Source of the DNA: Candidatus Saccharimonadota bacterium
GTDB lineage: Archaea; Micrarchaeota; Micrarchaeia; Micrarchaeales; Micrarchaeaceae
DNA: 32,000 nt
Assembly (NCBI GenBank): GCA_963698035.1
Contig: OY969114.1
Span: 150,001-182,000, forward strand
Direction of reading: 5' to 3'
The notes under the pieces are model-generated. The model ran no database searches. It worked only from the letters and a program-made list of their open reading frames with translations, and was not told the origin of the DNA. A program made the translations under genes and the position numbers. This document shows positions 170 through 16,244 of the stretch, in pieces (the first letter of the stretch is position 1; each line of letters starts with the position of its first letter).

Positions 170-183
170 TTAAGTTAATTGCT
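170..183. repeat. Left copy of the 14-bp target-site duplication (ttaagttaattgct)
   Basis: Identical 14-mer in direct orientation at 16160-16173. Each copy directly abuts the outer end of a TIR. Confidence 0.9.
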
Positions 184-271
184 GGGATATATACTATCTC
201 TTAAAAACTAGAGTCCTATAAAATAACTTTTACATATGTTATAGACCTAGAGGAAAAACTAGAGTGTTCTC
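184..271. repeat. Left terminal inverted repeat (88 bp), starting gggatatatactatctc
   Basis: Its reverse complement matches 16072-16159 at every position (checked base by base). It contains an internal 12-bp direct repeat aaaaactagagt at 203-214 and 254-265. Confidence 0.97.
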
Positions 272-307
272 AATTTATTAAGAAACGACCTTCCCTGGCT
301 CAAAATC

Positions 308-1039
308 TCAGTCAGTTCTTGTCACATTCAGAATTTTACCGCTATTATTGACGTAAAATACAATTTGGCAGGGATATGTTGCGTTTTGAGGCGCGCAGTT
401 TACATTAGCCTGTTTCACAGACTGGTTGCCATAATACGTATTTGTTATGTTGGTTATAGTGCCTGTCGTGTTCATCTGTTTGAGCCAAGCATTAACTTCA
501 GCAGTTATTGTACTATTAGAGACATTTGCAGGAGCCTGACATTGATTGGTGTACCTATTAACAACATATCCGTTTGTGCAACCACAATCTATAGCACACG
601 AGTTATTTGCACGCTCTTGCGCAGTGCAGATAGCATCTCCACAATAAGCTTTCAAGCATGCACCATAGCTACTGCAGTAGTACCCAGACTGGCAGGAGGT
701 TGCAGTACAAGATAATATGGGTTGGCTACTTGAGGATTGGTTATTCAAGTTAGTATTGGTTAGGAGAAAGAATCCCCCAACTATAACTATTACAACTATA
801 ACGCCAATAATCAAGAAGAACTTTGGTTTGAAATGGCCAAATATTAACTTATTTTCAGCTTTCTTGTTCTCTTTTTGCACTTCGGCCGCAGATCTCGCTT
901 TGCTCTCGACTTTGCTTTCAATAATTTCTAATTTTGCACCGCAGCTATGACAGAATTTTGATTTAATGGAGTTTTTAGCGCCACAGTTAGGGCATTCTAC
1001 TCTTTTTGACTTGATCGTTTTTCTAGTTTTTGCAGCCAT
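308..1039 (-). CDS. Membrane protein with an N-terminal zinc ribbon, one TM helix and a Cys-rich, NxS/T-rich ectodomain
   Basis: CPNCGAKNSIKSKFCHSCGAKL zinc ribbon. TM helix FFLIIGVIVVIVIVGGFFLL. Many Cys residues and N-glycosylation sequons follow. It is the last gene of the leftward operon. Confidence 0.7.
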   Translation of the reverse strand: MAAKTRKTIKSKRVECPNCGAKNSIKSKFCHSCGAKLEIIESKVESKARSAAEVQKENKKAENKLIFGHFKPKFFLIIGVIVVIVIVGGFFLLTNTNLNNQSSSSQPILSCTATSCQSGYYCSSYGACLKAYCGDAICTAQERANNSCAIDCGCTNGYVVNRYTNQCQAPANVSNSTITAEVNAWLKQMNTTGTITNITNTYYGNQSVKQANVNCAPQNATYPCQIVFYVNNSGKILNVTRTD

Positions 1040-1044
1040 TTAAT

Positions 1045-2865
1045 CTACCCATAAGTTAAAGTTGGATCTCCATAAAGCTGCAATTCTTGTGCGGTATCTC
1101 TCTGCAGCTGAGTGGGCGAGTTAGTTAAGAAGTTCCGTTTCATCGAAAGAAAAGCTTGACCTATAGTTTCGCCAGATTTAAATTTATTGTATATGTACTC
1201 TAGATTGGTTGGCGTATAACCTCCAAACCCTTCTTTAGTGTTACCTATATAAGCGGATGCTCCATCCTCTAGCATTTGCAAAGCAAGCGGAGTTGTTCCG
1301 CCGGGTATAAGATAATAGTACAAGGTAGTATTGCTTGGTTCTGTAATCCCATCATAACATGCGGCTGATAGTATTATTGGATTTGTATTAAGTTGTGGTA
1401 TACTTGAAGCAGACCAATAGAGAAAAGTGGAAAGAGTAGTATAATTGCCTGACCACGTACCACAAGAGTATCCGCTACCGTGGCAGTCATAATATTGGAT
1501 TCCGTACACAGAGGATATGTCAGTTTGAAAGTTTGAAGCGCTTGTGCAGCTCGATCCTAAACAGTAAGGTGGAACACTAAGGCAATTAGAGTTACTTGCA
1601 CATGAACTGCCTGTTGTGACTTCTGAAAAAGTATTTACGTCACCTCCAATGAAGGAGTCATGCTGATCATTTAATTCATCTCCAGATATCAGTAGATTAT
1701 TATTGGTCTCCGAATGCCTTTTTGTATCGTTTGATAAGATAGAGGCAATCTCATCAGCATTAGAACCTGGAATTCGCGCAACCACTATTGTTGGAACGCT
1801 GCTATTCGTTAAACTTCCATACGGGTCGTCGGTTGGTATGATGTATGAATTATACCCACTGTCATCTACATTTACTCCTAACGAAGAAATGGTTGGCATT
1901 GGTACAATATTTTCATTACCCAAGATAATTAGATAAGTTGCATTGGTCAAGTATTCTATTCTGTTTATTGTTGATTTAACGCTAACCCAACTGTTCGCAT
2001 TCATGTTAGGATTATATGAACTCAAATTTACATACACATAGCTTAAGCCTTCAGAAGTCAATACACTTTCATAACTAGACAGGGCATTTATGTAGTTAGA
2101 ATCCTGATTAAAGTTAGAACCTATTGTTACAATTACAACATCTTTATGACCAAAACTGTTGTTATATTGAGGGATTGTTGTAGTTGACTGTTGTACAATA
2201 GTAGACTGCGAACCTATGGTTGTCGGCGGAGGAGCGCAGGTGTAACTACCACTTGCACTTGCTATAACACCATATTGGCAGGTCGTACAGGCCGTACCTA
2301 AACCTAATTTCCATACGCCAGTCGCATTCTGGATGCATGGACAGAATGACTGGCCTACCTGAACTTGTGTGTTAGGAGTACACTGATTAGCTGGTTTACT
2401 CACAACATTAACTTGTGCAGTAGAGCTTCCTCCTCCGTTAGAATCTGTTACAGTAACCGTACACTGTTGATTTATCGTCTGATTTGCTCCAGATGTGTAT
2501 ATTGGTATATTTATCTCTTGGTTCTGGCCTGCCGGAACGCTGTATTTTTGTGAACTTACAGTGCTTACCCCCGCGCAATCGCTCAGACTATAGTAAAAGG
2601 TTCCTTGCGAAGTTCCTATATTCTCAACATTAACGTCTATACTTCCGTTGGCCCCAGAACTAAACGGGGCCGAAGTTGCAGACAATATCTTTGGTATACC
2701 TTTTGGTATCACAACTCCAATAAAACTTCCCTTCACTCTTAGTGTAATTTCTGGGTTTGTTGTAGTAAATGCTGTTGGTATAGTTACAAGAAATGCTTGC
2801 TGACCTCCATAATTACTAATCTGTGGTTGCGATGAAGCACCATATACCGTAGCGGTACTTTGCAA
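1045..2865 (-). CDS. Secreted-type protein with a CARDB-like domain and a clan-CD (gingipain/C25-like) peptidase-like domain; no recognisable signal peptide
   Basis: IDVNVENIGTSQGTFYY...CTVTVTD resembles CARDB. YLIILGNENIVPMP...IPTDDPYG, then His-Gly (YYDCHGSG) before Ala-Cys (ILSAACYDG), and a C-terminal LQLYGDPTL resemble C25 peptidases. The only start codon after the upstream in-frame stop is TTG at 2865. Confidence 0.65.
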   Translation of the reverse strand: MQSTATVYGASSQPQISNYGGQQAFLVTIPTAFTTTNPEITLRVKGSFIGVVIPKGIPKILSATSAPFSSGANGSIDVNVENIGTSQGTFYYSLSDCAGVSTVSSQKYSVPAGQNQEINIPIYTSGANQTINQQCTVTVTDSNGGGSSTAQVNVVSKPANQCTPNTQVQVGQSFCPCIQNATGVWKLGLGTACTTCQYGVIASASGSYTCAPPPTTIGSQSTIVQQSTTTIPQYNNSFGHKDVVIVTIGSNFNQDSNYINALSSYESVLTSEGLSYVYVNLSSYNPNMNANSWVSVKSTINRIEYLTNATYLIILGNENIVPMPTISSLGVNVDDSGYNSYIIPTDDPYGSLTNSSVPTIVVARIPGSNADEIASILSNDTKRHSETNNNLLISGDELNDQHDSFIGGDVNTFSEVTTGSSCASNSNCLSVPPYCLGSSCTSASNFQTDISSVYGIQYYDCHGSGYSCGTWSGNYTTLSTFLYWSASSIPQLNTNPIILSAACYDGITEPSNTTLYYYLIPGGTTPLALQMLEDGASAYIGNTKEGFGGYTPTNLEYIYNKFKSGETIGQAFLSMKRNFLTNSPTQLQRDTAQELQLYGDPTLTYG

Positions 2866-2873
2866 AAGTTGAG

Positions 2874-4238
2874 TTACGGCTTGGTTATTGTTGTTAAGAT
2901 CTTGGTATTTTTCAGATGCTTTTGCCTTCCAACAGGACTGAAGCGTATTGCCGACTTTATCTTCGGAGTTTTACCTGTCAATAGCTTGGATAATAGGATA
3001 CTCGGAAGCCCGTAGTATAGCGTTTCCTTTGATGATATATAGTTAAGTCCAACTGTGAAAATCTCATTATAAGCTGCCCTTACTGGTAGTAGGTCATCAT
3101 CTGGCTCAATTTCAACAATAACACAGAATTGTTTCCATTTTTCTAGATTTCTCAGATCATCTAATTTTATTTCGTCTACTAATTTCCGCACGTTTACAGT
3201 ATCATCAACATATTCTATCCTTTCGGCTATGAGGAAATCATACAGCCCCAGCAAAGTAAAAAGACTAGGGTACATGCTTGTAAAATCAAGCGCCGTAACG
3301 AGGCAGGGTTGTTTTCTGATTCTAGCTTCTACTCTCCCGCCATAATAAGCTTGTGATATTTTTCCATATATCGAAGCTGGGACATCAGGATTAAGCACCA
3401 TATAAGGAGTTATGCCAAGCTCTTCAAGAAATGCCTTGCCAATTGAAGCAGAAGAAAAGACGTTAGGTAGCGGTAATTTTACTCCAAATCTATCATATTC
3501 ACTTTTCAAGTGTGTGAACAGCTCGGCAGTAGCCAAAGTGTCCTTTATGTTGTATGCTATGTACTCTTTTGTTATCTTTCCATGCTCTCCGGCCTCGAGT
3601 TTGTAGTATTTCTTATTCCATCGCTCGGCAGCCCGTTTCAAGGAGATATGTTTATCATCAGAAAAAATAATCGCCAGGTTTTGGCAATCGATAAAGTATC
3701 CACGAACTTTTTTAGCGTATTTCGTGGTATGGAATTCTATGCAGGATTCTGCGGTGTTAATGTGCTTTAGTCTAATTGCCGGATGCTTATCTTGTTTACT
3801 GAGTTTGAGTGTGAAGCCACCATTCATCCAACCTCTTGCATAACCATAATTTATAGTTAATCGGGATAAATCAAACGGTAAATTGAAGCCTATGCATGGT
3901 ACTTCGTCCTTATGGACTGTTGGATAAAAAACAGTTTCAAGAAACGTCTCCAGGTCGTATAATCTTATAGTGGGATCATGATTGCAGTAGCTTTGCAATA
4001 CCTCAAGTTCATTTTTAGTAACTTCAACTGGATTATAAAATAGCCCTAACTTCTCTACTATTTCACCACGCATGATAACAAATGATCCAAACGTAAGTGC
4101 CTGGCGGGGGTCGGTTCGAGTTTCGCAGTCAAAGGAAAAGATTCTTTCATAGCTTGGTACACTATATCGCCTTGGCTTGTCTGATCGTGGCTTGTTGTTT
4201 TTCTTTTTGACGTTGAATGCTCTAAAGGCTACTTCCAT
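2874..4238 (-). pseudogene. polB: Protein-primed family-B DNA polymerase, C-terminally truncated: exonuclease domain and motif A only
   Basis: ExoI FSFDCETRTD, ExoII GFNLPFDLSRL, ExoIII YNIKDTLATAELF and motif A LDFTSMYPSL are present. The ORF ends about 125 aa after motif A. Motif B (Kx3NSxYG), motif C (YxDTDS) and KxY are not found in this ORF or in other frames downstream. Confidence 0.8.
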
Positions 4239-4524
4239 GCTTATCCATTCCCCGTTTCTTAAGCCGTTTACCTATCAGTTCAAGCAACGAGCCAATTGAG
4301 ACATCTTCAAAGTCATGTTTATCTTCAGGACTAGCTTTTCTGCTTCTAGCTTTGGGTGGAAAAGCGTTTTGATCGGAGGTTATTTTCCGGTGGCAACAGA
4401 AACAAAGAAGGATTTTTGTTTTGGGGTCGTTTATACGGCCATACGCGTGATGGTACTCACCTAAAACTCTTGGATCTGATTCTTGGCATATAGCACAACT
4501 TCTCTGAGAGGTTTCAGCAAGCAT
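4222..4524 (-). CDS. HNH endonuclease
   Basis: CAICQ...EYHHAYGR...LLCFCCHRKIT fits the CxxC...HH...CxxCH pattern. It overlaps both neighbours, which suggests translational coupling within an operon. Confidence 0.8.
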   Translation of the reverse strand: MLAETSQRSCAICQESDPRVLGEYHHAYGRINDPKTKILLCFCCHRKITSDQNAFPPKARSRKASPEDKHDFEDVSIGSLLELIGKRLKKRGMDKHGSSL

Positions 4525-5092
4525 ATATCTCTCCTCCGAATTCTTGCTCGCGACTTAACTCGATCTCCTTTATCTGCTCTATTCTAGTCTCCAAATGGTG
4601 CTTTTTGCCTTCGGCATCAATGATCACCCTTTTCTTGTACTTTTCAAGAAGGGTCAGGTCACCAGAATATTCTAAAAGCTTCTTAGTATCGTTGAAGTAT
4701 GCCCCTATCAGGTGAGCCATCTCCGAGCCTCTTATAACCACGCTTCTTACCCTGCCTCTCTCGTATATGACAAGGCCTCTTTCGATCCAATCCTGGGGCT
4801 TGGCTTTCCAGCGTCCCTTTCTCTTGCGCAGGTAGCCCCTTAGCTGGGCTTTTACGGTCCGGGGGTCTATTCCCACCTGCCGTGAAGCAATGGTCAAATA
4901 ATGACCATTCCTCACAAGCCGGATCACTTCCAGAGCCCTTACGCGCAGTTCCTTCTCTTTAGGGCTTAACGTGTTCCAGGGCTTAGAGGAGGCAGAGAGG
5001 CGTTTTAAGCCTCTCTTGCGCCTTTTAGGCGTCGACGACATCCTCATCTGCACTCTCTTCGTCCTTTTCGTTCTGTTGCAAGGCCTGTTCAA
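4514..5092 (-). CDS. HTH DNA-binding protein, a casposon-associated type
   Basis: Basic N-terminus followed by LTIASRQVGIDPRTVKAQL (helix-turn-helix). The true start is probably the internal Met at 5047 (MRMSSTPKRRK), because the upstream part overlaps the RHH gene. Confidence 0.6.
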   Translation of the reverse strand: MNRPCNRTKRTKRVQMRMSSTPKRRKRGLKRLSASSKPWNTLSPKEKELRVRALEVIRLVRNGHYLTIASRQVGIDPRTVKAQLRGYLRKRKGRWKAKPQDWIERGLVIYERGRVRSVVIRGSEMAHLIGAYFNDTKKLLEYSGDLTLLEKYKKRVIIDAEGKKHHLETRIEQIKEIELSREQEFGGEIYAC

Positions 5093-5363
5093 GCAGGCTA
5101 CCTACAACTTCACTTTCTGTGAGGTCGCGGTCCTTTGCCAAAGCCTCGATCTTTTCCTTCAAATCTTTGTAGATGTAGACCGGTGCCCGCCCCTTCGAAG
5201 AGGAGGGTTTGCTTATTTCCTGGTCAGCTGTTACCGAGCCCTCGAGAGCCTCAAAGTAGCTCTCCAGACACATTAGTAACTCCTCTCTTTTCCTCGCAAT
5301 GTGAGGATCTCCCTCTGCATTTTTTCCCGATGACGCAGAAAACATCTTTCTTTTTTGTTCCAT
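5025..5363 (-). CDS. Ribbon-helix-helix (CopG/Arc-like) DNA-binding protein, first gene of the leftward operon
   Basis: PVYIYKDLKEKIEALAKDRDLTESEVVGSLLEQAL fits a beta-strand, helix, helix RHH pattern. The tail is acidic. The start is taken at ATG 5363 (MEQKRKM) rather than the ORF-track start at 5426, which would run through the intergenic palindrome. Confidence 0.55.
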   Translation of the reverse strand: MEQKRKMFSASSGKNAEGDPHIARKREELLMCLESYFEALEGSVTADQEISKPSSSKGRAPVYIYKDLKEKIEALAKDRDLTESEVVGSLLEQALQQNEKDEESADEDVVDA

Positions 5364-5454
5364 TTTATTACCAAGTACATAGTAAAGCTTATTAATTTTA
5401 AACGTACCATTAATGTACGTTATCACAGAAAAGCGTACATATAGGGGAACATTT
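5364..5454. promoter_or_regulatory. Divergent control region between the leftward (RHH-HTH-HNH-PolB) and rightward (wHTH, R-M) gene sets, with a palindromic candidate operator
   Basis: aacgtac-cattaat-gtacgtt inverted repeat at 5401-5421, a further gcgtac at 5433-5438, and A/T-rich TATA-like tracts (ttaattttaaa at 5390-5400). Confidence 0.35.
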
Positions 5455-6381
5455 ATGAATACGTTCGAACTTTCTAGGATCTTGGAAGATAAGGTCGTTA
5501 GGAAATACGTTGTCTATTTTCTGCCTGGCCCGATAACAATTACCGAGGTAGCGAAAAAAGTTGGTGTTAAGAACAGAAGTAAGCTCACAAATATGATTCG
5601 TAATTTACACGATTATAAAGTGGATAAAAAGCAGTACAGAGCCAAAAATTCGAAGCCTATTCAATTAGCCGGCAGTAGATTAATCAGCGACTATATGACA
5701 GCACTTTTTAAGTTAAATAAAGATGAAAGAGATTCATTAGTTACATTCATATCGAACGTTACAATAAAGGAAGAAATAATAGACGGTAAAAAGATAATAA
5801 AGAAAGAAAAAACAATCGAAGAATTTTTATTAAAAAACAATAAGGATTTAGATCAACTTCTAAATAAACTGATCTTATGGATTTTTAAAGTAGATACGAT
5901 AACAAAAATGTCTAATATTATTGATCCGGTCTATGTATCTGATTTTGATTCATTGCTTTATGAAGATTATCAATCTCCAGATCCAGAACGAGAATTAGAC
6001 ATAAGAAAGAAGAAACTGGATCTAGCAGTCATAAATAGGAGAAAATGGAAAAAAGCGAGGACTTTAAGACAGGAGATAATGGACTTAGAAATGGCACCAA
6101 GACGAGAGAAATCGGAACTAGAAATAGCTCTAACAGAGTTTGCTAAGCATAATACAAAAGGATTTGCATTTATCAATAAGATAATCAAATCGGACATAAC
6201 TACTTCTATCGGGATCAAAAACCTCTATGAATTAATATATGGAAACTTAAAAGGTTATGAAAAAGAACTAAAGTTTAGACTTGCAATATATGAACGTTTA
6301 ATGAAAGATGACAGTTTGATATATGACCCATATACTCGCATTATTCAAAAAAGAACTGATTTTAGGAAAAGAAGGATCTAG
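5455..6381 (+). CDS. Hypothetical Lys-rich protein with a possible N-terminal winged-helix domain
   Basis: ATG 5455 is preceded by tagggg. PITITEVAKKVGVKNRSKLTNMIRNL resembles a wHTH. The rest is coiled-coil-like with low complexity. The ORF-track start at 5413 lies inside the palindrome. Confidence 0.55.
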   Translation: MNTFELSRILEDKVVRKYVVYFLPGPITITEVAKKVGVKNRSKLTNMIRNLHDYKVDKKQYRAKNSKPIQLAGSRLISDYMTALFKLNKDERDSLVTFISNVTIKEEIIDGKKIIKKEKTIEEFLLKNNKDLDQLLNKLILWIFKVDTITKMSNIIDPVYVSDFDSLLYEDYQSPDPERELDIRKKKLDLAVINRRKWKKARTLRQEIMDLEMAPRREKSELEIALTEFAKHNTKGFAFINKIIKSDITTSIGIKNLYELIYGNLKGYEKELKFRLAIYERLMKDDSLIYDPYTRIIQKRTDFRKRRI

Positions 6382-6512
6382 AAGTGAGGCATCTCTGAGC
6401 TCCTCTTCCCTGTTGGACATCTTATTACTACTTTTCTTTGTTTTACTCCCTATCTAGGAGTTCATTTAAGCTTTACGCACATATGTTTATGAGTATAATA
6501 AAGGGGTGTAGA

Positions 6513-9248
6513 ATGGCTACAGAAGGATATAATCTAAGCGAGAAGGAAACGCGAAATAAGATTATTGATCCACAACTAAAAGGAGTCGGGTGGGCTAGTC
6601 GCTATTACAAAGAAGAAGTGAATCCAGTAAAATCAGATATAAAAAACAAAGATTATGTTTTGTTTTCTGGAAATGTCGAAAGAAATGTAGATCTGTTTAT
6701 TGACTATTTGTTGCTTGCCGAAGATTATACGCCCTTAGCTATTATTGAAGCCAAAAAATATTCCAAAGATCCGGAAAAGGGACGGATACAGGCTAGAAGT
6801 TATGTAAAAGAAATAACTTCAAAAACAGGGTATAAAATACCAATTTTCTTAACCAATGGACAGACTTGGAAGATAATAGACCAAGACGGTATAGAAAGAG
6901 ATGTGAGTGGGCCTTTTTCGCAAGACGATTTGAAAAGAAGACATGAATTATATCTGGGTCGAAAGCGACCTACCGAGATCAAGATAAATCTTAAAATTGT
7001 AGATAGGCCGAGAAACGCTACAAATGTTAAAAAATTGAGCGAACATTTCGAGTCTGGTCAACGTTCAGCTCTAATCCAAATGGCTACTGGAACAGGAAAG
7101 ACACGCGTCGCTATGGCCATTATTGACATTTTAAAAAATGCGAATTATGTCCGTAATGTACTATTTATCGCTGATCGAACTGCACTTGCAAATCAAGCGA
7201 AATCAAACGGATTCAAGAAATTTTTCAGCGAACCTGTTGGAGACTTAAGAGAGGGTAAGGGAAAAATTAGTAGATTCTACGTTACAACTGTTCAGACTTT
7301 AACAGCAGGAGGCAAAACAAAAAGATATGAGGATTTTAGCCCCGCATTTTTTGATTTGATTGTATTTGATGAAGCTCACCGTTCTTTGTATGATAAAAAT
7401 CATGTTCTATTCAGATATTTTGATTCTATAAAGATAGGCTTAACGGCGACCCCAACAGATCTTGAAACAAGGAATACATATGAATTATTTAACTGTAAAA
7501 ATGGTGTACCAACCGTGGACTACCCCTATGATGACGCTGTGCTAGATAAAGTACTGGTACCATATAGGGGAGAAACAATAGAAACAAAAGTTCTCTCGCT
7601 GGGAATTGAAGGCGCTGAGCTCACTGATGATTTAAAGGACAAGTTAAGGCAACAGGAAGTAAACCCCGAGAGCGTTGTATTTACCGGCTCAGAATTCGAC
7701 CGAATATTTATGGATGATAAAACTAACGAATTAATAATTCAACGCTTCCTTGAAAGATGCTATAAATCAGATGAAGGAAAACCCGCCAAATCTATAGTCT
7801 TCTGTGCAAGTCAACGCCATGCCAAACATATGAAGAAGATTTTCAATAATCTCTTTCCTCAGTTAAGCAGTGATGTCCAGGTTATTACTTCTGAAATGGA
7901 TAGAGCTGAGGATGAAGTTAGGCGCTTTAAAAATGAATCAGAGCCTAGAATCGCGCTATCTGTAGGAATGCTGGACACAGGAGTAGATATCCCAGAAGTA
8001 TGTAATTTGGTGTTCGTTAAACCAGTTTTTTCAGCTGTAAGGTTCTGGCAGATGGTAGGAAGAGGCACTAGAAACCGGGTTGCGTGTGACCATCCAGAGT
8101 GGCTTCCAGAAAAAAACAAAAAAGATTTTATGATATTAGATTTCAAGATTGGCGGGCACTCAAATATAGAATATCATAAATTCAAGATTAATAAAGAAAG
8201 CAAAACTGTAGACATGATGACCCGTATCTTCATAAATAGAGTTAAACTGCTAAATAAATCACTAGATAAATCACAGCGAGCAATTATAATAAAGAAAATT
8301 CTCGAAGATATTGGATCTTTAAACAAGAATTCATTTATAGTTAGGGAAAAAATACAGATAATAAAGAAAATTGAATCTGACTCATTCAACCTAGAAAAAT
8401 ATATTGAAGAACTTAATAACGAAATAGCCCCCTTGATGATATTGAAACAGGGTACAAATCCTTATACTACTTCGTTCGTTCTGAATTCAGAGAAATTATT
8501 TGCACTTATTTTAGATAGGGATAATGATAAAATAGAAACTATTAGGATTAGTGTTCTTGAACCAATGATAGAAAATGTAGCTAGGAGAAACAATTTAACA
8601 GAGGTCAAGGAAAAGGCTAACGCTCTGAAGACAGTTCTTCAAGATGAATTCTGGGATGACTTAACTTTCGAGAAGACCGAATTCCTAATAAAAGAAATTG
8701 CACCCCTAATGAAGTACTATAGCCCTGATCCACGAAAAATAGTTCAAGTAGATGCGCTGGACATAATAACAGATGTGCAAGGATTTGAAAGAGAATTAAA
8801 GGAAGATGAAGATTTAAAGAAACTGATAAAGGAGAATCCGCTAATTAAAAAATTGAAGAATGGAGAGGGGCTAACAGCTGACGAACTAAGGCAGCTTGTA
8901 GATATCTTTCAGAAAATCAAGCCGGAAATCAGCATTCCTAATATACAGCAAAGTTATGGCGAAGATTTTATGTTATTCCTTCATGAGGCTATAGGGTTAT
9001 CAAAAACTTACGACCCTAAAGAATTAATTGAAAGGCAATTTGATAATTATATTCTAAAGAATAGCCATTACAATTCTAAGCAATTGGAGTTCTTGAATCT
9101 TTTGAAAAAAGTGTTTGTAGAGCAAAAACAGATTTCAATAGAAGACTTTGGCAAATCCCCACTAGCAGATGAACGACCACTTGATTTGTTCGAAGAGAAA
9201 CAATTGAAAATAATAGTTAAAAACTGTAATAGGATTAAATTTAAATAA
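6513..9248 (+). CDS. hsdR: Type I restriction enzyme R subunit (DEAD/DEAH helicase-nuclease)
   Basis: N-terminal SEKETRNKIIDPQL..GW (HsdR_N). PD-(D/E)xK motif IDYLLL...AIIEAKK. Walker A QMATGTGKTRVA. DEAH box VFDEAHRS. Motif VI QMVGRGTR. ATG 6513 is preceded by aaagggg. Confidence 0.9.
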   Translation: MATEGYNLSEKETRNKIIDPQLKGVGWASRYYKEEVNPVKSDIKNKDYVLFSGNVERNVDLFIDYLLLAEDYTPLAIIEAKKYSKDPEKGRIQARSYVKEITSKTGYKIPIFLTNGQTWKIIDQDGIERDVSGPFSQDDLKRRHELYLGRKRPTEIKINLKIVDRPRNATNVKKLSEHFESGQRSALIQMATGTGKTRVAMAIIDILKNANYVRNVLFIADRTALANQAKSNGFKKFFSEPVGDLREGKGKISRFYVTTVQTLTAGGKTKRYEDFSPAFFDLIVFDEAHRSLYDKNHVLFRYFDSIKIGLTATPTDLETRNTYELFNCKNGVPTVDYPYDDAVLDKVLVPYRGETIETKVLSLGIEGAELTDDLKDKLRQQEVNPESVVFTGSEFDRIFMDDKTNELIIQRFLERCYKSDEGKPAKSIVFCASQRHAKHMKKIFNNLFPQLSSDVQVITSEMDRAEDEVRRFKNESEPRIALSVGMLDTGVDIPEVCNLVFVKPVFSAVRFWQMVGRGTRNRVACDHPEWLPEKNKKDFMILDFKIGGHSNIEYHKFKINKESKTVDMMTRIFINRVKLLNKSLDKSQRAIIIKKILEDIGSLNKNSFIVREKIQIIKKIESDSFNLEKYIEELNNEIAPLMILKQGTNPYTTSFVLNSEKLFALILDRDNDKIETIRISVLEPMIENVARRNNLTEVKEKANALKTVLQDEFWDDLTFEKTEFLIKEIAPLMKYYSPDPRKIVQVDALDIITDVQGFERELKEDEDLKKLIKENPLIKKLKNGEGLTADELRQLVDIFQKIKPEISIPNIQQSYGEDFMLFLHEAIGLSKTYDPKELIERQFDNYILKNSHYNSKQLEFLNLLKKVFVEQKQISIEDFGKSPLADERPLDLFEEKQLKIIVKNCNRIKFK

Positions 9249-9250
9249 TA

Positions 9251-9280
9251 TCTACAAATGTAGACATATATATTTATAAA
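9251..9280. promoter_or_regulatory. Perfect palindrome tctaca-aa-tgtaga directly upstream of a TATA box (tttataaa); candidate operator and promoter of the RHH-hsdS-hsdM unit
   Basis: Palindrome at 9251-9264 and TATA at 9273-9280. The ATG at 9303 sits about 23-30 nt downstream, which is leaderless-type spacing. A third half-site tctaca lies at 9321-9326. Confidence 0.4.
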
Positions 9281-9302
9281 CCTTAACTCACTAATCCTTA
9301 TT

Positions 9303-9677
9303 ATGGAATATAGAACCGTATCTACAAGGCTCTCGATTGACGAGTTTACTCTCATTAATGACTATTGTAAACGAAAAAGCATCAACCCATCAGCACTAAT
9401 AAAAGAACTCATCTTTGATGAGATAACTCCGTCTATCCCAGCACATATCGCAGGGAAAAATATTATCGAATACGATAAGAAAAAAGACTCCTTTTCTTGG
9501 TGTATTGAGCTAGATAGTGGTGAGCGCATTACAGCCATTAAAAGCATCTCGCCCGAATATATGAGAGATTTGTGCGGTGCCCTCGCAAGCGCTTTAACTT
9601 CAAGGAATGAATCACAAGGTAAGAAAAGAAGGGGTTCCGTCCCTGTACCTAAAAAAATAATCAAGGGGAGAAAATGA
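9303..9677 (+). CDS. Ribbon-helix-helix protein embedded in the R-M operon; candidate controller
   Basis: RTVSTRLSIDEFTLINDYCKRKSINPSALIKELI fits the RHH pattern. Its stop overlaps the hsdS start (ATGA at 9674-9677). Confidence 0.6.
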   Translation: MEYRTVSTRLSIDEFTLINDYCKRKSINPSALIKELIFDEITPSIPAHIAGKNIIEYDKKKDSFSWCIELDSGERITAIKSISPEYMRDLCGALASALTSRNESQGKKRRGSVPVPKKIIKGRK

Positions 9678-10837
9678 AATTTGACTACGTACAGTTAACG
9701 AATTATTTTGATATAGTTAGCCCTGGCATAAAACCATTCAAGGGAAATAAAAAATATATTGCAACTGGTTCGATGGAAACGGGCGAAATTGTGGGTTTCG
9801 ATCAAGTTAGCTATGAATCCAGACCAAGCAGGGCCAATATGGAGACTGTTGAAGACGATATACTGTTTGCTAAAATGAAAGACACCGAAAAAGTTTTCAT
9901 TATCACAAGGAAAGAAACCGAAAATATATATTCTACCGGTTTCAGTATCTTGAGAGTACGAGACCGAACGCAATTTGAACCTAAATTTGTCTACTATTGG
10001 TTGCGATCAGACGCTTTTAAGAGAGTTAAAAACCGAGATTCTACAGGTGCTACACAAAAAGCTCTAAACGAAGGCAGGCTTGCTAAATTCAGAATACCAA
10101 AACCTCCCCTAGAAACCCAAAAGAAACTTGTTGTGATATTTGAGAAGGTAGATAAACTAATAGAATTGCGACTAGATGCAGATAAACTAACTGACGAGTT
10201 CTTAAAAAGTGTTTTTTATGAAATTTTTGGAGATCCTGTTAAAAATACCAAAAAATGGCCTTTAAAGAACCTTAAGGAATTTGGGAAAATAAAAACTGGA
10301 AATACCCCTCCAAGAAAAGAACTAAACTATTATGGGGATTTTATAGATTGGATTAAATCAGATAACCTAAATACACCTTTTACATATTTGACACAAAGTG
10401 AAGAAAAGCTATCTCAAGATGGTGCAAAGGTTGGTAGAATAGCTCCAAAAAGGTCGGTTCTGGTAACTTGTATCGCAGGTAGTTTGTCCGCAATAGGTAA
10501 TGCCGGGATCGCCCAAAAAGATGTTGCGTTTAACCAACAGATCAATGCTATTATACCAAATACGGAAGTAAATGAGTTATTTTTATACTACTTGCTGGTG
10601 AACTCCAAAACTTATATTCAAAGTTTTTCTACACACTCAATGAAAGGGATGATTAGCAAGGGGGTATTTGAAAAAATTAGTCTAATTTATCCAGCGTCCA
10701 AGCTTCAATTTAAATTTGGGGAAATAAGTCAAAATATAGAAATGATGAAAGATAAGCAAAATGAATCTAAAAAACAGATTGATTATTTATTCAAAGCCTT
10801 AATACAAAATACGTTTAGAGGTGATTCACTATGTTAG
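9674..10837 (+). CDS. hsdS: Type I R-M specificity subunit
   Basis: Two target-recognition halves are separated by a conserved helical spacer (PPLETQKKLVVIFEKVDKLIELR). The C-terminal conserved region is QIDYLFKALIQNTF. It overlaps hsdM by 7 nt. Confidence 0.88.
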   Translation: MKFDYVQLTNYFDIVSPGIKPFKGNKKYIATGSMETGEIVGFDQVSYESRPSRANMETVEDDILFAKMKDTEKVFIITRKETENIYSTGFSILRVRDRTQFEPKFVYYWLRSDAFKRVKNRDSTGATQKALNEGRLAKFRIPKPPLETQKKLVVIFEKVDKLIELRLDADKLTDEFLKSVFYEIFGDPVKNTKKWPLKNLKEFGKIKTGNTPPRKELNYYGDFIDWIKSDNLNTPFTYLTQSEEKLSQDGAKVGRIAPKRSVLVTCIAGSLSAIGNAGIAQKDVAFNQQINAIIPNTEVNELFLYYLLVNSKTYIQSFSTHSMKGMISKGVFEKISLIYPASKLQFKFGEISQNIEMMKDKQNESKKQIDYLFKALIQNTFRGDSLC

Positions 10838-12318
10838 ACCAAGAATTAAAAAGTAAAATAAATAAGTTGTGGGATAAGTTTTGGAGTGGTGGTATCTCAA
10901 ATCCACTCATGGCAATCGAGCAAATTTCGTATCTACTTTTCATAAAACGCTTAGAGGATGAAGATGTTCTAAGGCAACAGAATGCAAGACTTACCCGAGA
11001 GCATTATGCCTCTATCTTCCAAGGAAACAGTGATTGCAAGTGGAGTGTCTGGACCGAATATTCTGCAGATAAAATACTGGATCATGTGCGCACTAAGGTA
11101 TTTCCATTCCTAAAAAGCCTTGGCGAAAAGGATTCTCTGTACAATCAATACATGCAAGATGCCGTTTTTGTGATTCCTACTCCGTCAGTGCTTATCGAGG
11201 CCGTGAAAATTATAAATGAACTGAAAATCAAGGAGCAGAATCGTGATACGCAAGGAGACATATACGAGTATCTTCTTTCAGAATTGACAACAGCAGGTAA
11301 AAACGGACAGTTCAGAACTCCACGTCATATAATCAAGATGATGGTGGAGTTATTAAACCCGAAATTTGGTGAGAACATCTGTGATCCGGCGTGTGGCACA
11401 GCTGGTTTCCTTGTTATCGCGTATGAACATATTCTGAAGCTGAATACCTCAAAGGATTTGATAAAGAAAGATGACGTTGGAAATGAATATGGTTTCAAGG
11501 GAGACAAGATAAACTCTACACAATGGGAGATTTTACGCAAGGAAACATTTTATGGTTTTGATATCGATTCAACAATGGTAAGAATTGCGCTCATGAATCT
11601 TATGATGCACGGAATAGATTATCCAAACATAAAACAAATGAATAGTTTATCCACCCGATATACTGAAAATAATCAGTATGATGTAGTCTTGGCAAATCCT
11701 CCATTCAAGGGTAGTATCGACGAATCTGAACTCAGTGATCAGCTTACTATAAAGACGACAAAAACTGAGGTTCTTTTCTTGGAGTTAATGAACCGGGTAA
11801 TGCGTATTAGTGGGAGGTGCGCAGTAATAGTGCCGGATGGTATTCTTTTTGGTGGATCAAAAGCTCATAAACAAATAAAGCAAATGCTTCTAAAGAAATG
11901 CAGGCTAGACGCAGTTATCTCAATGCCTTCTGGTATTTTCAAGCCTTATGCAGGGGTTTCTACAGCTGTACTTGTATTTACAAAGGGGGAAGAGACAAAG
12001 AAGGTCTGGTTCTATGAAATGACCTCAGACGGTTTTACTCTTGATGATAAACGCACTCTCATTGACGGAAAAGGTGATATCCCGGATATAATTGAGAAGT
12101 TCAAGAGACGCGATAAGGAAAGATTTGATGATAGAAAAGCAAAATGCTTCTTCATCCCAATTGAGGAAATAGAAAAAAATGATTTTGACCTTAGCATCTT
12201 AAAATATAAAGAAATTGAACATAAAGAAGTTAAATATGAAAAACCTCAAGCTATAAAGAAGAAAATATTAGAATTAGAGGAGGAAATTATTAGAATTGGA
12301 AACGAAATAGATGTCTAA
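10831..12318 (+). CDS. hsdM: Type I R-M N6-adenine DNA methyltransferase subunit
   Basis: HsdM_N-like N-terminus (LWDKFWSGGISNPLMAIEQISYLLFIKRL), GQFRTPRHI, SAM motif I DPACGTAGFL, and catalytic motif IV LANPPF. Confidence 0.93.
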   Translation: MLDQELKSKINKLWDKFWSGGISNPLMAIEQISYLLFIKRLEDEDVLRQQNARLTREHYASIFQGNSDCKWSVWTEYSADKILDHVRTKVFPFLKSLGEKDSLYNQYMQDAVFVIPTPSVLIEAVKIINELKIKEQNRDTQGDIYEYLLSELTTAGKNGQFRTPRHIIKMMVELLNPKFGENICDPACGTAGFLVIAYEHILKLNTSKDLIKKDDVGNEYGFKGDKINSTQWEILRKETFYGFDIDSTMVRIALMNLMMHGIDYPNIKQMNSLSTRYTENNQYDVVLANPPFKGSIDESELSDQLTIKTTKTEVLFLELMNRVMRISGRCAVIVPDGILFGGSKAHKQIKQMLLKKCRLDAVISMPSGIFKPYAGVSTAVLVFTKGEETKKVWFYEMTSDGFTLDDKRTLIDGKGDIPDIIEKFKRRDKERFDDRKAKCFFIPIEEIEKNDFDLSILKYKEIEHKEVKYEKPQAIKKKILELEEEIIRIGNEIDV

Positions 12319-12329
12319 TTAATGATAAT

Positions 12330-14792
12330 ATGGCTTATAGGAGAAATTTAGGTTTATTTACAAAGGAAGAGCGCGCTAAATGGAGTTATTATCTTTTAGC
12401 ACTCAAGGATATTCTAGACGAAGAGATATGGTCTAGAGAAAATAAGCTCCAAATAGAGCAAGTTCTGAACAGTTTAAATAATGATCAGCTAACCGTTATA
12501 CGTAATAAATACGGATTAGTTGGCACTACTACTGTCATTCAAATTCTTAGTGATAAGAAAAGAGCAATGGACCTCTATTGCTTTTGGCACTTTGCCGAAA
12601 TGCACGTTCCTAGTATAAAAGTTTACTTAAATCTCCCAAGATTGCACGGAATGCCCTTAAAGAAAATTGCTTTTGTAAAAACGCTTACACTTAATGACGA
12701 GGATATGACGGCGATTTTACTTTATAGTCTATGGCGCAGGTATGCGGTATTCGAGAGAAGTTACCAACTTGCAGAAGTCACTGAGCAACAGTTAACTCTA
12801 TTTACACGAAAAATTAGACGTATAAGCACCTTACTATCATACAGTGTTAAAAAGTATGTATTATACGAAAAGCCATACAGGCTAAAAATGCATGGCAAAT
12901 TCCATAATAAGTACATTTACTTATTTATGCGCTACAAAGGCGATGAAGAAGTACTTGCATTTTCAAATAATAGAAGTCAGAGTAAGTATGCTTATAAATT
13001 CGTCATATTAGACCCAGTTTTGAAAACTTTTAATATAGTAGTACATAGTGACAATGAGAGACGAACAATTTTAAATTACATCTCTAAGAAAATTAAATTA
13101 AAAATATTATTTGATTATGGAGATTTGAATGTTTCAAAAGATAAATTCTCTAAACTTTTTGTTTCTGAACCGACAAGAATTCCGATAATAAGTATTACTT
13201 ATGGCAATTCAAAACTCCCTACCGGAGCAAAAATAATGATTCAAGGAAATCCAGCATTAAATCCTATTAACAGGGCATTGGCTTTTCTAAATCCAAACGT
13301 AGTAGAAGCTAATGATATATCAAACATTAAGAGATTCACTATCCTATTTGAAGGACAGCCGGTTAGCATAGCTATAGATAAAATAATAGATGAATTAAAT
13401 TTAGGATACTGTAAATTAAGAATACCGGAGAGAGGGCTGGATTTTGAATTCAGAGAAAAACTGATTAGAAAGTTTAATTCTGATTTTCAAATACCAATAA
13501 ATAAATACTTCTTATTTGGTGAAGGAAATATAGATTATAAGACTATAATCAACTTTCTTCTCAATCAGAAAAATGTAAATTTAAAAGATAAGCCGATAGT
13601 TTATAGACGCACTTTAGACCAAATGTATAACATTGGCTTGTTAGAAAAACCCAAAGAGCATCCAGAACGTTTTTGTGTAAACCAGAGATGCGATAGACGA
13701 TATCGTAGTACCTGGAAGAGAGGACTTTGTATATGCGAGAAGGAACTGGTTATTTTCGGCACATCTTTCAGTGTCAAAATTAATGCAGAGTACGTAACTA
13801 ATTTCATTATAGACTATTTAAACTCTAAGAACTTAAAGTTTACTAAGGCAAAAAGAACATTCAACAAGAGAAAAAGAGATGTAATAGAAATATATACGCC
13901 GAGAGGAAATGTAACAATAATACCAGTCAAATCTACTAAGGTAGAACCGGAATTGTTAGATTATCTAAGAGATAACGAAATTAATTCCGTGTTAGTGCCA
14001 TATCCTAATACTACTGAAACTCAAGAAATAAGAAATAGGAAACATGGCGTTATTCCTGTTTCTGAACTTGTATATACTAAATTATACGAGCAGACTAAAG
14101 ACCCACTTCTTGCTGAGATAAATGGTACTATAGATAACGCCATTGATAGAACTGTTAATAATTACGAATATGCTATAGCGAGGTTAGAAATGAAATCAGG
14201 TTACGACTACCATTTATTTGAAAAGGATATGTATTCACTAATTCATTTTATATCTCCAATAGCACAAAGGCTTGGAGATGACCTTATTGGCAAACGAGTT
14301 TCGGATGGCCTAGTTTCTATTCCACTGGATGAAGAAAGACGGTTCTGTGTAACATGGGATTGCAAGTATACGTCGGATATATATAATTTCAGAGAACCCT
14401 ATAAGAAGACCGTAACATATCTGCAAAAATTATCAAAGTTACCAATCGTTAGAGCTTTCGGAGGCTTAAGAACATTTGTTTTTATCTCTAATAATCCTTC
14501 TGAAAAAAGATTTAGGAAATTCTGTAGAAGACTTATCAAGAATTATAAATGGCGCGGCAAACTGGTTCTATTAAGATCGAGCCAGCTAATAAGCCTTTCA
14601 AAACACTTTAAAAGTATAAGATATAACGTTACATCTTCTCCAGAGTTAAGGTCTAGATATTATGGCGATTTGGCAAATTTATTTTATATGTCCGGAAGAA
14701 AAATACATATAATTAACGACGATGAAGTAGCAAATATAACTAACCAAACATATGAGGCTCCTCGAATACATATAACAAGACCTGATGTCTAA
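12330..14792 (+). CDS. Large orphan protein (820 aa) with a Cys cluster and a C-terminal PD-(D/E)xK-like nuclease signature
   Basis: It starts 12 nt after hsdM on the same strand. CVNQRCDRRY...CICEKE is a possible Zn-binding cluster. The C-terminus reads FEKDMYSLI...RVSDGLVSI...VTWDCKYTS...TFVFISN, which fits E...D...(D/E)xK restriction-endonuclease-fold spacing. I recognise no other family motif. Confidence 0.7.
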   Translation: MAYRRNLGLFTKEERAKWSYYLLALKDILDEEIWSRENKLQIEQVLNSLNNDQLTVIRNKYGLVGTTTVIQILSDKKRAMDLYCFWHFAEMHVPSIKVYLNLPRLHGMPLKKIAFVKTLTLNDEDMTAILLYSLWRRYAVFERSYQLAEVTEQQLTLFTRKIRRISTLLSYSVKKYVLYEKPYRLKMHGKFHNKYIYLFMRYKGDEEVLAFSNNRSQSKYAYKFVILDPVLKTFNIVVHSDNERRTILNYISKKIKLKILFDYGDLNVSKDKFSKLFVSEPTRIPIISITYGNSKLPTGAKIMIQGNPALNPINRALAFLNPNVVEANDISNIKRFTILFEGQPVSIAIDKIIDELNLGYCKLRIPERGLDFEFREKLIRKFNSDFQIPINKYFLFGEGNIDYKTIINFLLNQKNVNLKDKPIVYRRTLDQMYNIGLLEKPKEHPERFCVNQRCDRRYRSTWKRGLCICEKELVIFGTSFSVKINAEYVTNFIIDYLNSKNLKFTKAKRTFNKRKRDVIEIYTPRGNVTIIPVKSTKVEPELLDYLRDNEINSVLVPYPNTTETQEIRNRKHGVIPVSELVYTKLYEQTKDPLLAEINGTIDNAIDRTVNNYEYAIARLEMKSGYDYHLFEKDMYSLIHFISPIAQRLGDDLIGKRVSDGLVSIPLDEERRFCVTWDCKYTSDIYNFREPYKKTVTYLQKLSKLPIVRAFGGLRTFVFISNNPSEKRFRKFCRRLIKNYKWRGKLVLLRSSQLISLSKHFKSIRYNVTSSPELRSRYYGDLANLFYMSGRKIHIINDDEVANITNQTYEAPRIHITRPDV

Positions 14793-14801
14793 TTTAGAAT
14801 A

Positions 14802-16022
14802 TTATAATTTGCCCATTACTTTGTTGTAGATTTTTATCCTCTTACCCTCTCGTATATTCTTTTGTATGTACCATAGCGTAGATTTATTTATTCCTAACTT
14901 TTTACGCTCTTCTGGTGTTATCCCTAGTATATCTTCCTTCACGTTAGTTGAGTCGTTACGTTTTAGTTTTATCTCTGGCAATGTGAAGACCAAGCCTGCA
15001 GCCTTGCCTTGGATATGATTGCTTAGCGCCCTCAGGTTCTCAAAGATCAAGACCTGGTTCTTGTAGCTAGCGTTCCTATGAGTTGTGGTCTCGTTGAAAT
15101 TTATCCTCAATTTCTCGATTAACCTCTTTGCTGTGCCTTCACGAAGTCGTATATGGAAGTTCTCAGTCACGATGAACGATGACTTCTTCAGGGCCTTCTC
15201 CTCAAGTAGCTGGAGAACGGACATGTCAACAAGCCACCTGTACAGCTCCTGGAAGTCATAAACCAAGGGCATCTTGCTCGAGCTTGCTTCATGTAGGAAC
15301 CCTATCGATGGGTCCAGGCCAATGGAGTTTATTGATCGTCTTACCTCACTCTCGAGTATTGAGTAGCCGTAATTAAGCAACGCATTTACCTCGTCCGAGG
15401 CATGCATATTGTGATAAAAACTCTTGTTCTTGCGGCTCTGGAAATTGAATTCAGGCGCGGCCTGCCTGAACACCTTGGCCATCTGCTCCCAGTAGATGTT
15501 GGCCATGCGTGCCTCGTACAGCATCAGGACATTAAGCTTGTTTTTGATTGTCTTGGCGCGCCTTATATCCCTATAGTAGGCATTGAACTCAGTGCTTGAA
15601 CTGATCTTGATGTGCTCCTTATCCAAGACCGTGTAATAAGCAGACAGCTCTTCCAAGAATTCAAGCTCGGACTCAACCTTGCTTTCTATGATTGATAAAG
15701 CTATCTTATACCGCCATGCATCATCCAGGTACGCTTTGTACTGATCCAGCTTCAACTTCCCGGAGATTGGTTCCTTTGGCATGGTTGTACTCAGGAGATT
15801 CCCGTCCCAGTTTAACATGATAATCGGTATGTCATGCTTCATCAGCCATCTTGAGGCATCAAACGAGATGCAGCCGCTATGACCGTCTATTATCACGGAA
15901 TCATAATGGATCTGGTGCGGGTAAAACTCTAGTTTAGTATTCTCAAGCTTATTGGTAATAGTAAGCCTGCGCTGGTCTACATTGATAGATGTTCCAAATC
16001 CAGAGATTAATAATGGATTCAT
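14802..16022 (-). CDS. cas1: Cas1-family integrase (casposase) with a C-terminal HTH
   Basis: N-terminal Cas1 beta domain (LLISGFGTSINVDQRRLTI...DSVIIDGHSGCISFDASRWLMKHDIPIIML). Catalytic-region motifs are LMLYEARMANIYW, NALLNYGYSILESEV, LDPSIGFLHE and LVYDFQELYRWLVD. The C-terminal HTH is GINKSTLWYIQKNIREG. It lies 50 bp inside TIR-R. Confidence 0.92.
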   Translation of the reverse strand: MNPLLISGFGTSINVDQRRLTITNKLENTKLEFYPHQIHYDSVIIDGHSGCISFDASRWLMKHDIPIIMLNWDGNLLSTTMPKEPISGKLKLDQYKAYLDDAWRYKIALSIIESKVESELEFLEELSAYYTVLDKEHIKISSSTEFNAYYRDIRRAKTIKNKLNVLMLYEARMANIYWEQMAKVFRQAAPEFNFQSRKNKSFYHNMHASDEVNALLNYGYSILESEVRRSINSIGLDPSIGFLHEASSSKMPLVYDFQELYRWLVDMSVLQLLEEKALKKSSFIVTENFHIRLREGTAKRLIEKLRINFNETTTHRNASYKNQVLIFENLRALSNHIQGKAAGLVFTLPEIKLKRNDSTNVKEDILGITPEERKKLGINKSTLWYIQKNIREGKRIKIYNKVMGKL

Positions 16023-16060
16023 TCATAGCACCTTTTGTCGAGATAATATCGACGTCAAAG

Positions 16061-16068
16061 TATATAAA
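16061..16068 (-). promoter_or_regulatory. Candidate TATA box (tttatata on the minus strand) for cas1, just inside TIR-R
   Basis: It lies about 40 nt upstream of ATG 16022. A small palindrome gtcga-n7-tcgac (16037-16053) sits between the TATA box and the start codon. Confidence 0.3.
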
Positions 16069-16071
16069 TGA

Positions 16072-16159
16072 GAGAACACTCTAGTTTTTCCTCTAGGTCT
16101 ATAACATATGTAAAAGTTATTTTATAGGACTCTAGTTTTTAAGAGATAGTATATATCCC
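16072..16159. repeat. Right terminal inverted repeat (88 bp)
   Basis: Exact reverse complement of 184-271. Confidence 0.97.
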
Positions 16160-16173
16160 TTAAGTTAATTGCT
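16160..16173. repeat. Right copy of the 14-bp target-site duplication; overlaps the last 4 nt of tRNA-Glu
   Basis: ttaagttaattgct is identical to 170-183. Its innermost 4 nt (16170-16173) encode A70, G71, C72 and A73 of the tRNA. Confidence 0.9.
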
Positions 16174-16244
16174 CCGATCGGGATTTGAACCCGAGTTTCA
16201 GCCTTGAGAGGGCCGTGTCCTTGACCGAACTAGACGATCGGGGC
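16170..16244 (-). tRNA. tRNA-Glu(CUC), 75 nt, CCA not encoded
   Basis: Manual cloverleaf: acceptor GCCCCGA/TCGGAGC (one C3-A70 mismatch), D stem GTCT/GGAC, anticodon stem CGGCC/GGCTG, loop CTCTCAA, T arm TCGGG-TTCAAAT-CCCGA, discriminator A. Confidence 0.85.

Follow-up and report, generated by a model that had tools for sequence, protein, structure and literature searches.

The casposons of family 2 are recognized by their casposase, by genes for HNH and helix-turn-helix (HTH) proteins near the gene for a family B DNA polymerase (polB), by a target-site duplication (TSD) of 14 nucleotides (nt) and by residence at the 3' end of a tRNA gene (PMC4046053, PMC10359463). Their polymerases belong to the PolB_CDTDS group, which has the signature AYCDTDS (PMC4046053, PMC7544198). 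Copies of casposons in which polB has been inactivated persist in Methanosarcina (PMC4779613), and a gene-less mini-casposon that consists only of the TSD and the terminal inverted repeats (TIRs) can integrate in vivo in M. mazei when the proteins are supplied in trans (PMC10359463). Krupovic et al. noted that the known casposons encode nothing able to move them between cells (PMC4779613). The current report deals with a derivative of a family 2 casposon, not an autonomous member, that occupies positions 184-16159 of a 32,000-nt stretch of contig OY969114.1 (positions 150,001 to 182,000 of the contig; we refer to the whole stretch as the window). We consider it highly probable that this element, inserted at a tRNA-Glu gene of a small archaeal genome, carries the scar of a single deletion that removed the 3' part of polB together with the beginning of the adjacent cargo gene, and that cargo gene is the remnant of one that encoded a fusexin joined to a peptidase-like domain.

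The open reading frame (ORF) of 454 amino acids (aa) at the polB position retains the three exonuclease motifs and motif A, all of which the first-pass annotation of this DNA had picked out, and it stops 129 aa past motif A. A search of 5.8 billion proteins yielded 119 relatives, the best of which (P0002, 747 aa) matches over its own residues 1-456 with 52% identity, an E value of 3e-150 and 100% query coverage. The closest relatives are 747-885 aa long, in a family whose polymerases normally have 750-900 aa; they align with window residues 1-448 and then go on through motif B, motif C and the thumb. The window agrees with them closely up to ...PVGRQKHLKNTKIL and then diverges, reading TTITKP and a stop where they have a nearly invariant ILG-I-INP and continue. 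The hidden Markov model (HMM) built from the family has 691 positions, and the window aligns at positions 1 to ~458 only, ending in ...NTKIL. When six full-length relatives were compared with the whole window by tblastn, they matched 4238-2877 only, which corresponds to their residues 1 to ~456, and their C-terminal 290-430 residues were absent anywhere in the 32 kb. Alignment, HMM and tblastn thus agree that motif B (LKIxANSTSYG), motif C (AYCDTDS), the KxY motif (SAKRY), the thumb and the C-terminal tail are gone and that none of the missing motifs, nor the thumb, is encoded elsewhere in the window. A programmed frameshift or a split gene was also considered and was rejected because the window holds no C-terminal half of PolB.

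A self-synthesis-capable family B polymerase gene is therefore what this element lacks, and the fragment would be unable to polymerise DNA. Its exonuclease and palm motif A regions are 34-47% identical to those of 159 PolBs, most of which have a Cas1 gene nearby, and in the aligned relatives the consensus at the truncated motif C is AYCDTDS. The earlier assignment of the gene to the classical protein-primed polymerases has accordingly to be replaced by one to the family 2 casposon, or PolB_CDTDS, group, while the list of missing motifs that accompanied it stands. Pfam DNA_pol_B_2 matches the ORF with an E value of 2e-8 over profile positions 121-246 of 468 only; the fragment matched none of the PDB sequences, and a scan of IMG/VR returned no relatives of the polymerase.

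As had been reported, the next ORF begins at a TTG codon 8 nt downstream of the polB stop and has no hydrophobic segment fit for a signal peptide or a transmembrane (TM) helix. What remains there is the 3' two-thirds of a gene whose product combines a fusexin of the Fsx1/HAP2 type with a C25-peptidase-like domain. Its relatives P0121-P0131 are 51-69% identical over 97-99% of the 606 aa and are mostly 887-977 aa long; the shorter ones, P0122 (695 aa) and P0125 (781 aa), are themselves truncated at the N-terminus or split between frames. At least five of these relatives begin with a hydrophobic signal segment, such as MRNLKILSWTFIILLFASLPITYAQA. Residue 17 of the window protein aligns with residue 343 of P0121, and the window copy begins at about residue 320 of its relatives, so that ~320 N-terminal residues are missing, namely the signal peptide and the larger part of domains I-II. 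Full-length versions of both truncated genes, which the annotation had suggested should be sought in related elements, have thus been found.

The fusexin assignment is based on several comparisons. The crystal structure of archaeal Fusexin1 (PDB 7P4L) is matched with an E value of 9e-7 by window residues 45-167 over its residues 316-441, and the family profile reaches 9.5e-16 over 7P4L residues 142-258 and 267-486. The NCBIfam Fsx1 model is matched by window residues 32-239 at model positions 299-518 of 610 with an E value of 4.2e-16, although this match lies below the equivalog cut-off of 650 bits. The relatives match Pfam HAP2-GCS1. An AlphaFold2 model of P0121 has a predicted local distance difference test (pLDDT) score of 70-85 over the first ~530 residues and below 50 in the C25-like part, and with this model Foldseek returned Fsx1 first (E 3.6e-23), followed by HAP2 of plants, algae and protists, class II viral fusogens and EFF-1. 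Searches of Pfam and PHROGs with the 606-aa ORF itself gave no match, and the Fsx1 signal for it comes only from PDB, NCBIfam and the precomputed Pfam entry PF28161. In Fsx1, domains I and II occupy residues 25-335 and domain III residues 350-453, followed by domain IV, and the fusion loops lie in domain II (PMC9259645). Domain III, which is immunoglobulin-like with a conserved disulfide, and the Fsx1-specific domain IV are present in the window protein; the signal peptide and domains I-II with the fusion loops are present in the full-length relatives and missing here. The remnant would be neither exportable nor a fusogen.

The C-terminal half of the window protein has no match in Pfam, and its profile has none in PDB; it is called C25-like because a homologue, P0132 (57% identity), matches the whole profile of Pfam Peptidase_C25 (PF01364) with an E value of 3.7e-21. 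The columns of the candidate catalytic His and Cys are invariant in the family alignment (A4). This domain stands where the TM anchor of a canonical fusexin would be, and no hydrophobic segment was found in the window protein or at the C-terminus of its ~900-aa relatives. Of the description "CARDB-like plus C25-like" given earlier, the second term finds support through P0132, and the region behind the first is fusexin domain III or III-IV. Only 24 homologues of the fusexin-C25 protein occur among the 5.8 billion proteins, and none was found in the 159 polB loci of two scans (described below); the module is therefore rare. In two of the loci that have it (L008, 967-3600; L009, 9522-12343) the gene is also damaged in the part for domains I-II, with the part from domain III to C25 open; this damage may represent real decay or long-read indel errors, and both loci come from one assembly, ERZ25039481.

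The point at which the two homologies meet was located with the PolB and fusexin HMM alignments in two reading frames and with a DNA alignment to the polB of a related casposon (L003) and the fusexin gene of another casposon-like locus (L005). The polB-derived sequence ends with the codon TTA (Leu448, 2897-2895), which gives the breakpoint that the annotation had proposed to map, and sequence of clear fusexin origin starts in the other frame with AAC (2895-2893); the two thus meet within a few nt. Fusexin homology continues upstream of the TTG, where the window reads NNNNQAVTQLLQSTATVYG and members of the family have, for example, SINNQHASQLLGPTQPIQG and where the family HMM begins to align at NNNNQAVTQLLQ..., and no start codon precedes the TTG in that frame. 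A still more upstream stretch of fusexin homology (GNTLQSCWKAKASEKY) was rejected since it can be aligned only with an insertion of 3 residues and covers codons that, read in the other frame, are strongly conserved in PolB. The six-codon tail of PolB and its TAA are fusexin DNA read out of frame and are plainly accidental. The losses amount to no fewer than 290-430 codons from polB and ~320 from the cargo gene, along with anything between them. In L005 a Cas1 gene, a gene for an 885-aa PolB, four small genes, the gene for a 938-aa fusexin-C25 protein (P0121) and a zinc-ribbon partner gene follow each other in one direction, and this order is a plausible model of the undeleted arrangement; the deletion would have measured at least 1.8 kb, or about 4.7 kb if the ancestor was L005-like.

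The first 16 kb of the window form a low-GC block (34-45% G+C, as opposed to ~50-55% in the remainder) that is delimited by inverted repeats. As the annotation had stated, the ends are perfect: the two TIRs do not differ at any of their 88 nt (184-271 compared with 16159-16072) and the 14-nt TSD, TTAAGTTAATTGCT, has no mismatch, both in keeping with the TIRs and the TSD of ~14-15 bp of family 2 casposons. The insertion is at the 3' end of tRNA-Glu(CTC), with the last 4 nt of the gene inside the TSD. The left TIR starts with GGGATATA, which is also seen at termini in other loci and at the start of the TIR of MetMaz-C1 (PMC10359463). L003, a related casposon whose Cas1 is 51% and whose PolB is 57-66% identical to those of the window, has the same arrangement of tRNA-Glu(CTC) 3' end, 10 nt and GGGATATA at its positions 329-434 as the window has at 16152-16256, and the shared site indicates a conserved target for this sub-lineage. 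A second TIR was looked for in L003, L005 and L009 and none was found, the contigs probably ending inside the elements; the intact fusexin gene of L005 is therefore only presumed to lie inside casposon ends. The host is likely to be a DPANN-type archaeon with a small genome, probably related to the Micrarchaeota, judging from its arginyl-tRNA synthetase, whose best named relatives (47-57% identity) are in Micrarchaeota, Micrarchaeia and 'Marsarchaeota' metagenome-assembled genomes.

Taken together, these results would be accounted for by a single deletion, or an illegitimate recombination to the same effect, within a family 2 casposon, through which codon 448 of polB became linked to a position near codon 320 of a cargo gene that lay downstream in the same orientation and encoded a secreted fusexin and C25-peptidase-like protein. 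The join is out of frame: polB now reads six foreign codons and stops, and it has lost the fingers (motif B), motif C, KxY, the thumb and the C-terminal tail. Missing from the cargo gene are the original start, the signal peptide and the greater part of fusexin domains I-II, and the 606-codon ORF would merely open at TTG, the first start-like codon of the surviving frame. That a single event took both gene parts had been put forward from the sequence at the outset, and the comparison with the two families bears it out, both genes being truncated exactly at their shared border. The casposon would now be non-autonomous for self-synthesis, making no second strand of its own, but the casposase it encodes, which is apparently intact, should still act on it; its remaining mobility might be of the cut-and-paste kind or depend on help in trans. 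We infer that the event was recent, because both remnants are open with their family-invariant residues, no further lesion occurs in ~1060 codons and the TIRs and TSD are perfect. Recent loss, mobility without a polymerase and a separate role for the exonuclease, the three options raised with the original observation, are not separable by sequence alone, and recent loss fits best.

Some observations weigh against a simple internal deletion. No undeleted sibling of this element was found, and the ancestral gene order and the size of the deletion are estimates drawn from relatives whose identity is only 33-69%. The two long open remnants (448 and ~615 codons) keep all invariant residues, and one or both could still be in use. 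The PolB remnant is closest to the polymerases of L003 and L001 (52-66% identity), both of which lack a fusexin, and the fusexin remnant is closest to that of L005 (69%), whose PolB is only 33% identical to that of the window. The junction could accordingly be the product of illegitimate recombination between two mobile elements, either tandem casposons at one tRNA site, for which there is precedent at a single target site (PMC4779613), or a casposon and a fusexin-bearing integrative element, the fusexin-C25 gene and its zinc-ribbon partner being present in the tyrosine-integrase elements L007 and L008 as well. We nevertheless regard such an origin as very improbable: only 36 nt separate the end of the zinc-ribbon gene from one of two TIRs with 100% identity, which means that the cargo was already inside a casposon with these ends, and in L005 a single casposon-like array has polB followed downstream by the module. 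Deletion and recombination of two elements would leave both genes in the same state. Even less credit can be given to the idea that the join is a chimera of assembly or binning, although the window is from a metagenome-derived contig and related contigs of the same ENA project (L003) have frameshifts in Cas1 and PolB that resemble long-read indel errors. Window positions 242-7238 (6997 nt) are matched with 100% identity by a separate Logan assembly (run ERR10755947, contig ERR10755947_3595799), which repeats the junction base for base and makes an artefact unlikely; moreover, no repeat that might mislead an assembler was found at the junction and the base composition is continuous across it. 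The Logan run is possibly not independent of the reads behind the window assembly.

The continued use of a truncated polymerase deserves separate comment, since the exonuclease and motif A module might have been retained as a stand-alone 3'-5' exonuclease or as one half of a two-piece enzyme. Its 448 homologous codons are uninterrupted and the motifs in them are intact. If short polymerases of this kind were a family, they should recur among related elements, and 159 loci were collected from PolB-alignment scans of GTDB species representatives, among which the window genome does not figure, and JGI metagenomes, to which loci fetched by exact protein look-up were added for a total of 170. A single PolB ORF spans the whole HMM in 139 of these and a Cas1 relative is also encoded in 131, but a conserved ~450-aa form, which would have spoken against a truncation, is not among them, nor does any PolB end at ~456 without its C-terminal half. 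Interruptions away from contig ends are few (eight loci, Table 1). Four of the breaks cluster at HMM positions 461-479, just before motif B, with the halves otherwise open, and the window breakpoint (HMM ~456-458) adjoins this cluster. That four other casposon PolBs are broken within ~25 residues of the same site suggests a linker that tolerates splitting, and positions 461-479 may be such a site; however, ascertainment bias is possible, in that two of the four were chosen for a length like that of the window ORF, and in the unbiased scans two of six disruptions are near the site (P about 0.06 by our own binomial estimate, not significant). All four split cases checked (L033, L083, L089 and L090) keep the C-terminal half just downstream, and the window has none in 32 kb. 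Retention of the module for a function of its own is for these reasons improbable, and we prefer the single deletion as the origin of the short ORF.

Table 1. Features of the casposon (window positions unless a locus is named) and positions of comparable features in related loci
Feature	Position	Strand	Remarks
Left TSD copy, 14 nt, TTAAGTTAATTGCT	170-183	.	identical to 16160-16173
Left TIR, 88 nt, begins GGGATATATAC	184-271	+	100% complementary to 16072-16159
Protein with zinc ribbon, one TM helix and Cys-rich ectodomain, 243 aa	308-1039	-	Pfam Zn_Ribbon_1/DZR; hydrophobic 65-83
Fusexin-C25 and zinc-ribbon gene pair	308-2895	-	also L005 10001-13564; L007 10001-13436; L008 1516-4359; L009 10001-13088
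Cargo ORF, 606 codons, TTG start	1045-2865	-	start 8 nt past polB TAA
C25-peptidase-like domain, residues 240-606	1045-2148	-	
Candidate Cys, SAACYDG	1348-1368	-	
Candidate His, DCHGSG	1471-1488	-	
Fusexin (Fsx1-like) remnant: end of domain I/linker, domains III and IV	2149-2895	-	includes ~10 codons upstream of TTG at 2865
PolB ORF, 454 aa	2874-4238	-	
Six foreign codons TTITKP and TAA stop	2874-2894	-	fusexin-derived DNA in polB frame
Probable deletion junction	2893-2897	-	uncertainty ~+/-3 nt
polB remnant, residues 1-448, 3'-5' exonuclease domain and palm motif A	2895-4238	-	PolB homology; Pfam PF03175
Motif A, DFTSMYPS, residues 318-325	3264-3287	-	
ExoIII, YNIKD, residues 229-233	3540-3554	-	
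ExoII, NLPFD, residues 119-123	3870-3884	-	
ExoI, FDCET, residues 36-40	4119-4133	-	
HNH-type nuclease, 100 aa	4222-4524	-	overlaps polB start; CxxC...HH...CxxCH pattern
Putative HTH protein of conserved core (p192), 192 aa	4514-5092	-	weak HTH_23 match, 0.0095
Cargo type I restriction-modification (R-M) system	6438-12318	+	PADLOC
HsdR	6438-9248	+	PADLOC REase_I 9e-106
Small ribbon-helix-helix-like ORF within R-M system	9303-9677	+	
HsdS	9674-10837	+	PADLOC Specificity_I 6e-68
HsdM	10831-12318	+	PADLOC MTase_I 8e-173
Casposase (Cas1-solo), apparently intact	14802-16022	-	Pfam Cas_Cas1 2.8e-57; TIGR00287 1.8e-50
Right TIR	16072-16159	-	identical over 88 nt to 184-271
Right TSD copy	16160-16173	.	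overlaps final 4 nt of tRNA-Glu(CTC)
tRNA-Glu(CTC)	16170-16244	-	
L112 PolB interruption	HMM position 147		
L004 PolB interruption	HMM position 245		
L003 PolB interruption	HMM position 289		
L083 PolB interruption	HMM position 461		frameshift; locus 9842-12336
L089 PolB interruption	HMM position 467		insertion sequence (IS) insertion; locus 5992-10367
L090 PolB interruption	HMM positions 471-474		single in-frame stop; locus 5947-9105
L033 PolB interruption	HMM positions 476-479		frameshift; locus 9935-12692
L115 PolB interruption	HMM position 566		

The Cas1-solo casposase gene keeps every residue that is at least 90% conserved among 30 casposases, including E170, H244, D256 and E259, with the exception of D282S. 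On the minus strand, p192, the 100-aa HNH-like protein, the 454-aa PolB, the 606-aa ORF and the 243-aa zinc-ribbon/TM protein are encoded by a string of overlapping genes. The HNH-like ORF has weak matches only (PHROG HNH, 0.009; Pfam Endonuclease_7, 0.057), and ORFs 55-62% identical to it are located directly upstream of polB in L001 and L003, which also have homologues of p192 in the same position (42-52% identity). Between the type I R-M genes and Cas1 there is an ORF of 820 aa (12330-14792, plus strand) that is a singleton when the protein collection is clustered and for which Pfam, PHROGs, PADLOC and NCBIfam gave no match; a novel cargo or defence gene is one possibility. The Cas1 gene (14802-16022, minus strand) is co-directional with the polB operon (2874-5426, minus strand), from which ~8 kb of opposite-strand cargo separates it. 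Cas1 and polB are also co-directional in L003, with a single opposite-strand gene between them, and in most of the 159 scanned loci Cas1 is divergent from polB and ~3 kb upstream of it. The Logan contig of ERR10755947 (L002, 15,860 nt) corresponds to window positions 242-16101, the short-read assembly breaking inside both TIRs; its existence as a contig of its own is what inverted repeats are expected to produce in a k-mer graph and is no evidence of an excised form.

The zinc-ribbon/TM protein encoded after the fusexin-C25 gene may serve as its membrane anchor. A homologue of the 243-aa protein (45-48% identity) directly follows the fusexin-C25 gene in L005/L006 and L007, and L008 and L009 have a zinc-ribbon gene (245-251 aa, from precomputed Pfam only) in the same position, so that a partner of 236-251 aa is present in every locus seen. 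Both casposon-like contexts (the window, L005 and L009) and tyrosine-integrase contexts (L007 and L008) harbour the pair.

The truncation itself is an ordinary and known kind of mobile-element decay. What it offers is an instance of a self-synthesising transposon that has turned non-autonomous in one step with its ends still perfect, and with it a natural system in which to ask whether casposition requires the polymerase of the element. The fusexin cargo appears to us the more interesting result, as an architecture previously undescribed that lies inside a TIR-bounded casposon of a DPANN-like archaeon: in the literature searched we found no paper that links casposons with fusexins, nor any account of a protein in which a C25-like domain is joined to a fusexin and whose gene has a conserved zinc-ribbon/TM partner. 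The intercellular transfer function that casposons were noted to lack is one that a fusogen might supply. It is conceivable, if rather unlikely, that casposons of this lineage carry the fusexin-C25 gene and its partner to fuse cells, be it a DPANN archaeon with its host or such archaea with each other. Were this so, casposons would gain a route of transfer between cells, the window would hold a freshly killed copy and L005 an intact copy beside intact Cas1 and PolB genes.

With the described family 2 casposons (MetMaz-C1 of Methanosarcina mazei and AciBoo-C1 of Aciduliprofundum boonei; Krupovic et al. 2014, PMC4046053) the element shares the Cas1-solo casposase, TIRs starting with GGGATATA, and, immediately before polB, what are putatively an HNH gene and small HTH genes; further common features are the 14-nt TSD, insertion at a tRNA 3' end and variable cargo that includes restriction-modification genes. 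Unlike them, it has a polB cut to 448 homologous residues, a fusexin remnant in its cargo, a Cas1 gene that points inward from the tRNA-side terminus with an 8-kb cargo block before the polB operon, and a host that is apparently a DPANN-type archaeon. The inactivated tandem casposons of Methanosarcina (Krupovic et al. 2016, PMC4779613) likewise combine a dead polB with preserved termini, but there the polB copies have multiple internal stops indicative of slow decay, whereas the window would have undergone one clean deletion that includes the start of the neighbouring gene and has no other lesions. With respect to the PolB_CDTDS group (Kazlauskas et al. 2020, PMC7544198), the full-length relatives of the window polymerase carry AYCDTDS and are encoded next to Cas1, whereas the window copy ends before motif B and the name-giving motif is gone. 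Archaeal Fsx1 (Moi et al. 2022, PMC9259645; 7P4L) has domains III and IV in common with the window protein, and domains I-II as well with its full-length relatives, and both fusexin lineages are carried by integrated mobile elements. Canonical Fsx1, however, is ~600 aa long, has three C-terminal TM helices and resides in elements of the XerC/D-HerA-VirB4 type (PMC9259645), whereas in the lineage represented in the window a C25-like domain takes the place of the TM region, a zinc-ribbon/TM partner gene invariably comes next and the carriers include casposons.

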